Positions 22,269 through 33,910 of a stretch of DNA of 64,000 bases are shown in pieces. Source of the stretch: a virus (Duplodnaviria > Caudoviricetes); the IMG/VR virus record IMGVR_UViG_3300020388_000011, positions 32,001 to 96,000 of that record; one strand, 5' to 3'. The position numbers and the translations under genes are program-made. Below the pieces are notes generated by a model. That model was not told the DNA's origin. It was given only the letters and a program-made list of their open reading frames with translations, and did no database searches. How positions within the stretch are numbered: position 1 is the stretch's first letter; every line of letters starts with the position of its first letter.

Positions 22269-22350
22269 TTTTCTCCACCCAAAATCTTCCATAAACCTTA
22301 AGAAATTATAAAGCTTCCTAAATATGTGGAGAGTATGCTATACTCTTTAT

Positions 22351-22456
22351 ACGTTCATCACACAGAAGGCTGTGTGACGCAAGTAGGATGACGCGGAACG
22401 GATTATCGTTCATCTTCTGCGAGAGTGGGAGACGCAAACGCCACCCGAAGGAACGG
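22351..22456 (+). ncRNA. Double glnA/glutamine-riboswitch-like RNA leader
   Basis: Two CGTTCA-hairpin-CGCAA units and two GGAACG strands, with AGTA/GAAG E-loop halves. It follows the extended -10 TGCTATACT (22336-22344) and precedes a YRG-motif peptide. Confidence 0.7.
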
Positions 22457-22491
22457 GGTTTTTATTAACCTTATTTCTTAGGAGCAAACAA

Positions 22492-22626
22492 ATGCTAGCA
22501 GTATACCGTGGTGTCGCTTATGACACCGACCGTAACTTAACGAAAGAATCAGATTACAAAAAAGTAACTGAAACTTATCGTGGTATTGAGCACACCGAAA
22601 CCGTTAAGGTAGAGGTAGCAAAATGA
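22492..22626 (+). CDS. DUF4278-like peptide (44 aa; two YRG motifs), not in the ORF track
   Basis: MLAVYRGVAYDTD...TYRGIEH..., with an AGGAG RBS at 22480-22484. Confidence 0.75.
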   Translation: MLAVYRGVAYDTDRNLTKESDYKKVTETYRGIEHTETVKVEVAK

Positions 22627-22727
22627 ATACCCTAGACATCATCCGTCAAAAAGAGCTAAAAGCAAGAAAGCTTCACGAAGCTCGGTTGCTTATGGCAAGA
22701 CTAAACAACAAAGCGAATATCGCTTGA
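22623..22727 (+). CDS. Small basic helical peptide (34 aa, MNTLDIIRQKELKARKLHEARLLMARL...), not in the ORF track
   Basis: ATGA overlap with the previous ORF implies translational coupling. Followed directly by a terminator. Confidence 0.6.
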   Translation: MNTLDIIRQKELKARKLHEARLLMARLNNKANIA

Positions 22728-22731
22728 TTTT

Positions 22732-22755
22732 GGGAGCCGCAAGGCTCCTTTTTTT
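22732..22755 (+). terminator. Intrinsic terminator
   Basis: GGAGCC-GCAA-GGCTCC hairpin (GNRA loop) followed by T7. Confidence 0.85.
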
Positions 22756-22756
22756 A

Positions 22757-22765
22757 TGCTATAAT
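22757..22765 (+). promoter_or_regulatory. Extended -10 promoter TGnTATAAT (representative of a recurrent family)
   Basis: The same element occurs at 21109, 24843, 46581, 58126, 58984 and 62675. TTTTATGCTATAATATCCTT is identical at 22752 and 58121. Confidence 0.7.
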
Positions 22766-22785
22766 ATCCTTGAATACATAATACT

Positions 22786-22977
22786 ATGGACCGAGAAAAG
22801 GTAAAGTTTCTGATACAATCTATTGAAGTTCTCATTGACGAACTTAAAGCAGAGGTTTACACCGACTCTGAGACCCATAAGGTTTCTGAGACTGCTTATA
22901 GCGACGAGGAGGAAGCAATTTCCACCGATAATCTAATCCAAACAATGTTCACCCAAGTGATTGACGATACACTATGA
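22786..22977 (+). CDS. Conserved cyanophage hypothetical protein
   Basis: MDREKVK.LI...E.L..ELKAEVY.D pattern. Overlaps the thyX start (ATGA). Confidence 0.65.
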   Translation: MDREKVKFLIQSIEVLIDELKAEVYTDSETHKVSETAYSDEEEAISTDNLIQTMFTQVIDDTL

Positions 22978-31993: not shown

Positions 31994-33910
31994 ATGAGTT
32001 TATTTGGAGCTGCTAATTCAGGTGTTGATCCTCAATCGGGGGCATACCTGACAAAACAACAAAGAATCGCTATGTTCCGCGCTTCACGTGGGATGGGTGG
32101 TGGAAATAGTGGTGGATCCAATAAAGACGGTGGCGTACAGCCAAAATCGGCTATTGTTGTTGCTAATAAATTTGCAACTATAACGCAGACATTAAATAAT
32201 AATTTTCAACAATCAGCAACTAATATTTCTGATCAGGCTCAGAGTAATAAAAAGTCTATTGAAAATCTTTATAGAATTATCTCTGACAAGAGAGATCAAG
32301 AATTAAAAACTGAAAAGCAAGAGACTAGACAAGCTTCATTACAACTTGAAAAGAATAAAAGAACAGCAAGAGAGAATTTTGTTGAGGGATTGTCCAAGGC
32401 TGCTGCCGCAGCACTAGTACCACTACAGAAAACTGCCAATGCCGTAACCGGAAAGGTTATGAGTTTTTGGGATAAACTGAAAAGATTATTATTACTATTA
32501 GGTGGTGCTTGGCTGGTTGATAATCTACCAGAAATACTCGATAGTATTAAGTCATTTGATTTAAGTATTGATAGTTTTAGTACCGCTGTTGCTGGCATAT
32601 TGCCAAATGTTCGTGGTATTTTTAATATATTTGATGGGATTGTAAGGGGAATATTAAGAGGTGTTAGGAGGGTTGGATCTACTGCTTTTAGAATTGCTGC
32701 TAAAATCGGTGGTACAGCATTTAGAATTGCTAGAAAAGTATTTGACTCAATAATTGATGTAACATCTAGAGTCACTGGTGCAATATTTAATGGGATAAAA
32801 AAATTAGGAAGTAAGTTATTTGATTTATACAAGAGTGCCAAAAATACTCTTAGTGGTGGTCTTAAATCTGCCCAAGCTGCTAAAAATGCCAAGGTAACTA
32901 AACCAAAGGGATTATTTGGGAATATTGTTGATAAGTTGAGGCAGGGTGGGAGTAAAGTTAAATCTTTTGCTAGTAATGTTGGTGGTAAACTTGGCTTTGA
33001 TAAGATGCGCGAGGGTGCTGGTAACTTTATGCGTGGATTTACAGATTTCACAGACAAGGCAATGGAGAAATTAAATCCATTAAAAAGTTATGCGGTAAAG
33101 GAAGGTATTGCGGAAGGTAATCCCACAGGTAGACTAAAAGGAATAAAGAATCTCCTAACGAAGGTCTTTAATGCAGCTGGTATCGCTAGTACGGCAGGTA
33201 ACAAGTTACTAACAGGTATTGCAAAAATAGCAAGACCTCTTTTGAGACTTCCTGGAGTTGGTATTGCGGTTGATATAGCACTCAATAAAGCAGGTGGTCA
33301 AGGTAATCAAGAGGCTCTTATTAGAGGACTTGCTTCTGGTATTTCCGGTATGGTGGGAATGAAAGCTGGTGCTGCTATTGGTGCTGGTATTGGAACCGTA
33401 GCAATCCCAATTCCCGGTCTTGGAACTGGTATTGGTGGCATTTTAGGTGGTCTTATTGGTAGTATTCTTGCCGCAAATACAGCTGATGCTTTGGCTAAAG
33501 CTGGGATGACGATGGCTGGAATGGAAACCACGTCTGATGAGACGATGGCTGCTAATTATGGTAATATTATTGAAAATATTACTAACAATAATAATACAGC
33601 TACGGTTACTCCTGCCTCAGATAATAAAACAACTCACCCCGACAAGTCTATTAAAATTACTCCAGGAGATCGTATCGATGCTGGTAGCTTTAGTACACCA
33701 GATGGAATGCAATTGTCTGGTGGTCTTCCAGCTAGTACGTTTAACTTGCAGGAGCTTCCTCCAATTATGACCCGTATGCAAAAAGAGCAGCCAGAAGAAA
33801 TTCTTCCACAGCAGGAAGTTAAACCAATTAATACTAGAGATCCCCAGACTGATATTTACAGACACCTTGCTGGTAAGATATATCAGTTAACTGAGGTAGG
33901 TGCTAACTAA
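31994..33910 (+). CDS. Tape-measure-like / baseplate-associated helical protein
   Basis: Long amphipathic helices, a coiled coil and a glycine-zipper hydrophobic segment (GAAIGAGIGT..IPIPGLGTGIGGILGG). Positioned after gp26/gp51. Confidence 0.55.
   Translation: MSLFGAANSGVDPQSGAYLTKQQRIAMFRASRGMGGGNSGGSNKDGGVQPKSAIVVANKFATITQTLNNNFQQSATNISDQAQSNKKSIENLYRIISDKRDQELKTEKQETRQASLQLEKNKRTARENFVEGLSKAAAAALVPLQKTANAVTGKVMSFWDKLKRLLLLLGGAWLVDNLPEILDSIKSFDLSIDSFSTAVAGILPNVRGIFNIFDGIVRGILRGVRRVGSTAFRIAAKIGGTAFRIARKVFDSIIDVTSRVTGAIFNGIKKLGSKLFDLYKSAKNTLSGGLKSAQAAKNAKVTKPKGLFGNIVDKLRQGGSKVKSFASNVGGKLGFDKMREGAGNFMRGFTDFTDKAMEKLNPLKSYAVKEGIAEGNPTGRLKGIKNLLTKVFNAAGIASTAGNKLLTGIAKIARPLLRLPGVGIAVDIALNKAGGQGNQEALIRGLASGISGMVGMKAGAAIGAGIGTVAIPIPGLGTGIGGILGGLIGSILAANTADALAKAGMTMAGMETTSDETMAANYGNIIENITNNNNTATVTPASDNKTTHPDKSIKITPGDRIDAGSFSTPDGMQLSGGLPASTFNLQELPPIMTRMQKEQPEEILPQQEVKPINTRDPQTDIYRHLAGKIYQLTEVGAN

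Follow-up and report, generated by a model that had tools for sequence, protein, structure and literature searches.

The locus and the parts of the leader RNA

We analysed a window of 64,000 nucleotides of viral DNA (positions 32,001 to 96,000 of the IMG/VR record IMGVR_UViG_3300020388_000011), which is 91% identical over its full length to the Synechococcus phage S-CAM7 (Kyanoviridae) and belongs to an S-CAM7-like cyanomyovirus. Our subject is an RNA leader element at 22350-22459, made of two units and followed by two small open reading frames (ORFs). We consider it likely that this leader is the glutamine-I riboswitch in a phage version, with two cores that share one helix, one core being nested in the other, and that it works as a glutamine-ON switch. 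The element is present in one copy only in the 110-kb viral record that contains the window. The neighbouring genes include a glutaredoxin-like ORF, a gene for a DUF6433 protein upstream, and thyX and phoH downstream.

A first-pass annotation, made from the letters of the window, had described a unit composed of promoter, RNA leader, ribosome-binding site (RBS), a 44-aa peptide, a coupled 34-aa peptide and a terminator. All of these can be read in the window, with a promoter that is putative. On the plus strand, the Shine-Dalgarno (SD) sequence AGGAG (22480-22484) lies 7 nt 5' of the ATG at 22492. This is the start of ORF1 (22492-22626, plus strand), which encodes 44 aa with two YRG motifs, is DUF4278-like according to a Pfam near-match, and is an annotated coding sequence (CDS) in S-CAM7. 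ORF2 (22623-22727, plus strand) encodes a basic, helical peptide of 34 aa; its start overlaps the stop of ORF1 (ATGA), and GAGG lies 7 nt upstream. The unit ends with an intrinsic-terminator-like hairpin (22732-22749) and its T run (feature at 22732-22756, plus strand).

The sequence motifs on which the annotation was built are all present. The CGTTC strands are at 22352-22356 and 22407-22411, the GAACG strands at 22396-22400 and 22451-22455, and the two hairpins at 22358-22377 and 22413-22432, each followed by CGCAA (22378-22382 and 22433-22437). The halves of an E-loop are split between the units: AGTA occurs in unit 1 only (22382-22385) and GAAG in unit 2 only (22447-22450). The strand GGATGACG (22386-22393) can form six of eight pairs with CGCCACCC (22439-22446), leaving two A.C mismatches. 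We call this inter-unit helix P3.

All parts of the RNA are on the plus strand. The 5' strand of the outer P1, CGUUC (22352-22356), pairs with 22451-22455 in our model R1 (described below), and this partner was assigned through covariation of the linchpin pair. The P2a hairpin (22358-22377; 8 bp, loop AAGG) is present in the predicted fold, with double changes in four of its five aligned pairs and all cells paired. It is followed by the outer junction J2/3, CGCAAGUA (22378-22385), which contains C22380, the linchpin partner of G22456, and AGUA, the 5' half of the E-loop. The 5' strand of the shared P3, GGAUGACG (22386-22393), is paired by covariation with its 3' strand, CGCCACCC (22439-22446). 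Between them lies first the inner P1' hairpin (22395-22411), in which G-GAACG (22395-22400) pairs with CGUUC (22407-22411) around the loop GAUUAU in both the minimum free energy (MFE) and the centroid folds. The P2b hairpin follows (22413-22432; 8 bp including G.U, loop GAGA). It is also found in the fold, with double changes in three of four aligned pairs, and because of its G.U pairs it fits an RNA of the plus strand only. The sequence of the inner J2/3, CGCAAA (22433-22438), has no GUA, hence the E-loop is absent from the inner end of P3. The last segment (22447-22456) comprises GAAG, the 3' half of the E-loop, the 3' strand of the outer P1 (GAACG) and the linchpin G22456. The linchpins of the window are C22380:G22456 in the outer core and C22435:G22401 in the inner one. 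The S-CAM7 copies (L001:2553-2662 and L332:453-562) read GAAAGGAACG, with one more A than the window in the 3' half of the E-loop.

In the fold that we propose, the outer core would have the canonical strand order, with P1 (22352-56 with 22451-55), P2a, CGCAAGUA, P3 (22386-93 with 22439-46) and GAAG. The inner core would sit at the tip of P3. Its P1 (22396-22400 with 22407-11) would be closed by a 6-nt loop, it would have its own P2b and CGC strand, and P3 would be its open stem. The inner strands would then follow each other as P1 3', loop, P1 5', A, P2b, CGCAAA, P3 outwards, P3 back, C and G-GAACG. This is the order of a normal aptamer, so that the inner core would be circularly permuted, its P1 being capped and its P3 open. 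The repeats would act as a pair of strand-swapping half-molecules, P3 serving both cores and the E-loop standing at its outer end only.

Covariation and the arrangement of the two units

We collected homologues by four pattern scans of viral contigs (at least about 120 records each); the doublet counts given here are those among the matches listed. Parsing gave 80 distinct compact doublets and later, with the linchpin positions left free, 155. The alignment A1 contains 61 distinct sequences, from which the model R1 was built, and the alignment A2 is a sample enriched for rows that are informative on the linchpins. The layout is present in viral contigs numbering, at the least, well over 200, and in several isolates. 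R1 gave 82.2 bits for the window (E 2e-19), 92.8 for Prochlorococcus phage P-TIM68, and 88, 85 and 75-77 for the Synechococcus phages MA10, S-B68 and S-CAM7. The records of these four isolates have no annotated riboswitch feature over the element. In S-B68 (L334, MK016664), a hypothetical minus-strand CDS is annotated over the riboswitch (657-866), and is probably spurious.

The strand that follows CGCAAGUA in unit 1 and the one that follows CGCAA(A) in unit 2 complement each other in at least 28 strand combinations. Examples are AGUCG/CGACU, AGUCA/UGACU, GGUCG/CGACU and GGACGG/CCGCCC, AGCCGACU/AGCCGACU as against AGCCGACA/UGCCGACU, and AGCCAACU/AGCUGACU. The counterpart of the window's GGAUGACG/CGCCACCC in relatives is GGACGACG/CGCCGCCC, and a U-A pair of the window is replaced by C-G in L015, L075 and S-B68. 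Double changes affect five of the eight P3 pairs in A1 (n=61), a covariation score reached by 0 of 500 shuffles. P3 cells are paired in 82% of cases, versus 5-39% when the partner strand is slid. The whole nested structure has 95.3% of its cells paired in A1, with a covariation of 0.276 versus 0.086 after shuffling (0/500). The complementarity of P3 persists when 138-192 nt separate its strands. Judged by these compensatory changes, P3 is a helix between the two units, as the annotation had proposed when it named covariation as the check.

Two other pairings were tried and rejected. A local P3 hairpin in unit 1 showed no covariation and would have a loop of 0 nt in 30 of the 61 sequences. A stem of glutamine-II type between the 3' strand of P3 and the bases after the second GAACG, corresponding to the glutamine-II P2 stem around GGAACG (with CGUUC/GAACG as a pseudoknot), gave no signal above shuffles: 30 of 500 shuffles reached its covariation score and 72 of 500 its paired share. 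We also observed that the 8-bp forms of P3, in the window and in homologues, keep an A.C or C.A opposition at pair three and at pair six, symmetrically within the helix. All positions are paired in the 5-bp forms.

The strands of P1 are invariant (GAACGG in 88 of 88), and give no direct covariation for P1 or P1'. The topology is therefore undecidable from P1, and the linchpin decides. Solved structures show a pair between base three of the CGN that follows P2 and the base after GAACG (C19:G41 in glutamine-II, with an equivalent in glutamine-I; PMC6698751). We named n1 and n2 the third base of CGN after P2a and P2b, and x1 and x2 the base after the first and second GAACG. Among the 155 distinct doublets, the classes n1 x1 n2 x2 were CGCG (107), GGCC (36), CCGG (3), GUCC (3), GCGC (2), GACC (2), CUGG (1) and CGAG (1). 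The nested linchpins (n1-x2 and n2-x1) are formed in 304 of 310 cells, and those of a tandem or interlocked arrangement (n1-x1 and n2-x2) in 222 of 310. Both linchpins are paired under the nested scheme and both mismatched under the tandem scheme in 40 sequences; the reverse occurs in none. The double changes of the linchpins occur in several P3 backgrounds, and hence do not go back to a single event.

The enriched alignment A2 gave the same picture. Its nested pairing has 93.7% of cells paired and a covariation of 0.556, versus 0.125 after shuffling (0/500), and its tandem pairing has 35.9%, less than the shuffled mean. The outer linchpin (columns 3 and 87) is GC in 43 rows, CG in 28 and unpaired in none, and the inner linchpin is GC in 59 and CG in 3. 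A change of the inner linchpin from C:G to G:C or G.U is found in L055, L357, L360, L405, L422 and L434. The linker between the first GAACG and the second CGUUC measures 3-6 nt in all homologues, which is the size of a hairpin loop, and its first base is the linchpin. The topology of the family is nested, and both this topology and its helices are conserved family-wide.

These results bear directly on the published view of such RNAs as two independent, side-by-side aptamers with pseudo-cooperative action. Rfam does align each unit alone, and a 2022 review files 157 glutamine doublets and four triplets as independent pseudo-cooperative riboswitches (PMC9481103). True side-by-side tandems exist in the viral contigs L436 and L486, where CGGAAGUA, a P3 hairpin and GAAGGAACGC are found in each of the units. 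The constrained energy optima are also close (-23.1 for the tandem, -24.1 for the nested fold). Against this, each unit of the doublets lacks one half of the E-loop and a local P3, the local alternative being loopless in the 30 sequences mentioned above, and the inter-unit helix covaries. The tandem linchpins fail in both units of the 40 informative sequences, and a linker of 3-6 nt is too short for a separate expression platform. The nested fold is the MFE fold in 11 of the 61 homologues and the tandem fold in none; when the given pairs are evaluated, the nested fold is better by a mean of 5.5 kcal/mol (61 homologues). We therefore see only a slight chance that the window contains two independent aptamers.

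The annotation had left two folds open: a single aptamer carrying a circularly permuted second one in P3, which is the arrangement retained here, and two interlocked units, which the linchpin covariation rejects. In the interlocked fold P1 would close within each unit (1-1 and 2-2) and the junction strands would kiss to form P3. P3 and the E-loop halves would also suit a kissing helix, and unit 1 could close before unit 2 is transcribed. The linchpins instead link the CGN of unit 1 to the end of the second GAACG, and the CGN of unit 2 to the end of the first. Neither interlocked unit has the canonical strand order, which the outer core of the nested fold reproduces exactly. Such an interlocked molecule is, in our assessment, most improbable.

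Finally, the conserved sequence might act as DNA, as a promoter-linked recombination or regulatory cassette. The element adjoins a promoter hairpin, and in relatives it lies at the borders of variable cassettes of small genes. A function at the DNA level is nonetheless improbable in the extreme, given the compensatory changes in four helices and two long-range pairs, the G.U pairs that are valid on one strand only, and the collinearity of the element with a solved RNA aptamer.

Riboswitch class, ligand and expression platform

No Rfam family matched the window at the gathering score. In relaxed mode, RF01739 (glnA, or Glutamine-I) matched at 22405-22459 with 30.2 bits (E 0.00015) and at 22350-22404 with 26.3 bits (E 0.0017), each unit being scored alone against a gathering score of 35 bits. 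Together with the R1 score of the window, these E values put the resemblance beyond coincidence. Glutamine-II (Downstream-peptide, RF01704) matched unit 2 with 19.8 bits for a cut-off of 33. The Infernal search with these two models that the annotation had put forward thus recovers both families, with every match below threshold and in relaxed mode only. The alignment of unit 1 contains CGCAAGUA and lacks GAAG before GAACG; that of unit 2 contains GAAG and lacks GUA and a P3 hairpin. The incompleteness of the units accounts for the two low glutamine-I scores, and as each half is sub-threshold the layout is missed by standard scans with RNA families. The outer core has the P1 CGUUC/GAACG, the P2 hairpin and the CGNAAGUA junction of RF01739 in canonical order. 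The E-loop-flanked P3 of RF01739 is found across the two units only (AGUA at 22382-85, GAAG at 22447-50), and the linchpin between the junction strand and the base after GAACG is present. The element is a variant of the known glutamine-I class, and not a separate class of riboswitch.

We searched 151 cyanobacterial genomes with R1, scoring 27 candidates per genome, and found two single aptamers and no nested doublet, a result that does not imply their absence. In a pattern scan of genome contigs nearly all matches were due to chance, and the sole cyanobacterial one (L218) was inside a coding sequence. The two cellular singlets align to the full R1 model, with a P3 loop of 3-6 nt where the phage RNAs have 45-47 nt. 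As they are collinear with the outer core, the phage element can be described as a canonical aptamer whose P3 carries an inserted module at its tip.

The comparison with known systems places this module more precisely. Glutamine-I RNAs (RF01739; the Synechocystis leader of gifB, encoding IF17, PMC6212724) share with the window P1 CGUUC/GAACG, P2, CGNAAGUA, the AGUA/GAAG E-loop, P3 and the linchpin. Both stand before a DUF4278 or DUF4278-like gene and probably work as translational ON switches, and the outer core corresponds to the cellular singlets column for column. However, P3 of the window is not a hairpin, as a second complete core (~46 nt) occupies its tip, and the linchpin of the window is C:G, as in glutamine-II, whereas it is G:C in the cellular singlets. 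Glutamine-II RNAs (RF01704; structure 6QN3, PMC6698751) have in common with the window the linchpin between CGC and a following G, the pocket, and a link to YRG/DUF4278 peptides of marine picocyanobacteria. They lack an E-loop, as does the inner core of the window, and their crystal form is a strand-swapped dimer. In contrast with glutamine-II, both cores of the window have a three-way-junction topology, and the enclosing P2 stem is unsupported. The tandem glycine riboswitch also couples physically two similar amino-acid aptamers to one platform. Its aptamers are however side by side, in tertiary contact and cooperative, whereas in the phage RNA a helix of one core accommodates the other, which is permuted, and any cooperativity is putative.

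A 2010 study described glnA RNAs in tandem (PMC2864571), and its alignment already contains doublets of the phage type, with unit 1 in the unaligned flank of unit 2. Published tandem glutamine riboswitches (PMC2864571, PMC9481103) have two glutamine-type units in one leader, as here. They are described as independent and side by side, whereas the strands of P1, P3 and the linchpins are exchanged in the phage leader, whose units are incomplete alone and share one platform. The 2022 review has no term for a nested arrangement (PMC9481103). Our search of full-text literature for nested or permuted glutamine riboswitches found none, with a mention in Ames & Breaker 2011 or Ren et al. 2015 being possible.

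Both cores keep the pocket nucleotides of the solved glutamine-I and glutamine-II structures, i.e., the CGUUC/GAACG helix, the CGC strand and the linchpin. This conservation points to glutamine as the probable ligand. Binding by both cores is predicted, and their action would be cooperative, with expression ON in the presence of glutamine. A selectivity for L-glutamine would likewise rest on the conserved pocket nucleotides (PMC6698751).

A structured RNA that senses another ligand or binds a protein would be compatible with the two Rfam scores below gathering and with a junction CGCAA instead of CGGAA, and the ligand of this layout is predicted from sequence. All the pocket nucleotides named in PMC6698751 are however present in both cores, glutamine-II RNAs build this same linchpin from CGC and a following G, and the downstream DUF4278 family is usually under the control of glutamine riboswitches (PMC6212724). 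We regard a different ligand as very unlikely.

The nested fold could also have a single working sensor, where the outer core binds glutamine and the inner one serves as structural insert, folding timer or decoy. The inner core lacks the E-loop (CGCAAA, no GUA), its linchpin is mismatched in six of the 155 doublets, and in relatives P2a or P2b can contain a whole ORF, such that the hairpins tolerate very large inserts. On the other hand, in a scan that fixed the outer features only, the distinct inner regions kept GGAACGG in 79 of 84 cases and CGTTCA in 84 of 84. In several P3 backgrounds both bases of the inner linchpin have changed and still pair (C:G to G:C or G.U), and glutamine-II aptamers bind their ligand without an E-loop (PMC6698751). 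We find a single sensor unlikely, with a larger share of probability than the other alternatives. We would advance only tentatively the most extensive version of our reading, in which cyanophages widely use a two-site glutamine sensor whose pockets, coupled through P3, act cooperatively to set the translation of DUF4278-type peptides during infection.

The leader also contains a competing structure. In the MFE fold of the window, CC.AAGGAA.GGGGUU (22445-22460) pairs with AACCUU.UUUCUU.GG (22467-22482). The resulting OFF hairpin (22445-22482, plus strand) is found in MFE folds and sequesters the GG of the SD; it consumes the 3' strands of P3, the E-loop and P1. In the unconstrained ensemble, G22481-G22484 are paired with a probability of 0.90-0.98 and A22480 is unpaired. 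When the nested aptamer is enforced, G22481 and G22482 become free, with A22483 and G22484 still paired with the region of the start codon. A base match within this SD-sequestering helix holds across the family: among 148 distinct leaders, the variable base that opens [G/A]AAGG agrees with the one that closes the CUU[C/U] preceding the SD. An A never stands opposite a C (37:0 vs 52:36, Fisher 2e-7). Since these leaders are related by descent, this statistic is supportive, not decisive.

These models suggest a glutamine-ON translational switch. Without ligand, CC-GAAGGAAC (22445-54) would pair with UUUCUU-A-GG (22474-82), and the RBS would be hidden. Glutamine would stabilise the nested fold, which would withdraw these strands and free G22481-G22482. 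The 44-aa peptide would then be translated, followed by the 34-aa peptide through the ATGA overlap, and transcription would end at the terminator (22732-49). ON behaviour has been published for glutamine riboswitches (PMC6212724, PMC6698751), including ON switches before DUF4278 genes (PMC6212724).

Several observations weigh against this reading of the window. Its own linchpins (C, G, C, G) are compatible with both topologies and thus uninformative, so the nested fold of the window is inferred from homology with informative relatives. The P3 of the window includes the two A.C mismatches, the P1 strands contribute no covariation, and a few inner linchpins are mismatched, as described above. 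Neither unit reaches the gathering threshold of RF01739. The aptamer state lies ~8 kcal/mol above the MFE in a model that has no terms for the E-loop, tertiary contacts, Mg2+ or ligand, and this gap would have to be made up by tertiary contacts and ligand. While transcription proceeds, unit 1 could fold on itself first (its CGUUC with its GAACG), and other conformers may matter.

A 2017 survey reported two glutamine aptamers only in phage genomes and stated that phages rarely use riboswitches (PMC5473149), to be compared with the nested layout in at least well over 200 viral contigs. In the literature searched, riboswitch aptamers in tandem stand side by side; the comparative evidence places one predicted ligand-binding core in a helix of another, with exchanged strands. 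The layout itself offers a way for two sites to be coupled. It would be a natural circular permutation of an aptamer, and possibly a template for engineered switches with two inputs or a sharp threshold. It suggests that cyanophages read the glutamine pool of the host directly to time a cassette of small peptides. If the coupled two-site sensor is real, it is a riboswitch architecture that we did not find described in the literature searched.

Peptides, ORF-bearing relatives and flanking features

The first-pass annotation had called the two micro-peptides hidden. They are not: both are annotated as hypothetical proteins in the S-CAM7 isolate MT586120, and ORF1 also in NC_031927. ORF1 matched the Pfam family PF14105 (DUF4278) with 23.4 bits (E 8e-5), slightly below the gathering score of 25.3, and its relative in L024 matched with 51 bits. 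Homologues of ORF1 (MAQVTYRGV.YDT...YRG) are encoded downstream of nearly all doublets. We found no longer homologues of the DUF4278 peptide of L024.

The ORF2 family is conserved, with the pattern L-x-L-I-K-x-Q-x-x-K...H-x-A. It is a separate ORF of 31-36 aa after the DUF4278 ORF in doublets of the subfamily with a GGACG(ACG)/C(GC)CGCCC P3. The same module is fused before two YRG repeats in proteins of 54-55 aa, and after the YRG motif in L115. These fusions indicate that the two peptides are functionally tied. ORF2 had no match in Pfam or NCBIfam, and the ESM Atlas gave nothing useful. Cyanobacterial DUF4278 proteins (L336-L355) have two types of C-terminal modules, one IF7-like (..RQQA[ML]L.R...E[VI]GL..) and the other with the pattern ..H.AN[LI]...L..R...A...GD..L...LE.E... 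The comparison of the phage ORF2 module with the IF7-like type by hhalign (eight cyanobacterial C-terminal modules) gave a probability of 0.2%, and that with the second type was not significant. Contact of cyanobacterial IF17 with glutamine synthetase has been shown for a part of the protein other than its N-terminal DUF4278 portion (PMC6212724). As the ORF2 module is unlike both cyanobacterial modules, a role of the peptides in the control of glutamine synthetase remains a guess. The functional reading of the annotation, a phage nitrogen sensor that produces peptides modulating this enzyme, is only plausible.

The relatives with a GGACG(ACG)/C(GC)CGCCC P3 (e.g., L024:1842-1922 and L162:3192-3275) have a further, hydrophobic ORF of 25-33 aa (e.g., MI..IA..STAF..LIY.EV.LL.K) after the peptide ORF(s). 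It is also found in L002, L042, L152, L170, L197 and L201, and there is none in the window.

Many relatives encode ORFs within the aptamer itself. Among the matches listed, 80 distinct relatives (e.g., L004-L064, from L004:3715 onward) have an insert of 138-192 nt in the loop of P2b, and nearly all keep the complementarity of P3. In the inserts that were printed, an ORF begins at an AUG right after the 5' strand of P2b, and most frames run into the 3' half of the aptamer. We had taken these sequences for single units with an immediate ORF; they are doublets with an ORF-bearing P2b. Most leaders that seem to lack the first CGUUC have an ORF of 65-97 codons inside P2a, ~200 nt upstream of CGCAAGTA (L002, L005, L022, L045, L154, L170 and others). 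The closing pairs of this enlarged P2a covary (UCUU/AAGA, UCCAA/UUGGA, UCCCA/UGGGA). The interpretation of these leaders as half units without the first CGUUC and P2a was therefore rejected as well. Many of the P2a ORFs stop at UAA within CGCAAGUAA, and L013, L025 and L033 apparently have ORFs in both hairpins. The relatives with an ORF in P2a or P2b resemble the window in their nested layout of two cores and in the family of the peptides encoded downstream. In contrast, the window has the compact form, where both hairpins have 8 bp and 4-nt loops and there is no internal ORF.

Upstream of the leader, the promoter-like region (22330-22346, plus strand) contains an extended -10 element, TGCTATACT (22336-22344), within a perfect 7-nt inverted repeat (22330-22336 and 22340-22346). 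Relatives have TATAAT-like hexamers inside hairpins at the same position, immediately 5' of CGTTCA. Transcription would start just upstream of the aptamer. A scan with promoter consensus sequences left the -10 region of the window unflagged because there is no good -35. In some relatives (e.g., L003, L017 and L078) the promoter hairpin has the form GTA-N8-TAC, which resembles an NtcA box (GGGTATGCTAACATACC). There is no such NtcA box near the promoter of the window, where the corresponding form is GTA-N5-TAC.

On the 3' side of the terminator, the region 22757-22977 contains a second extended -10 sequence, TGCTATAAT (22757-22765), followed by an acidic ORF of 63 aa (MDREKVKFLIQSIEVLIDELKAEVY...). 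Homologues of this ORF are encoded 3' of the riboswitch cassette in many relatives.

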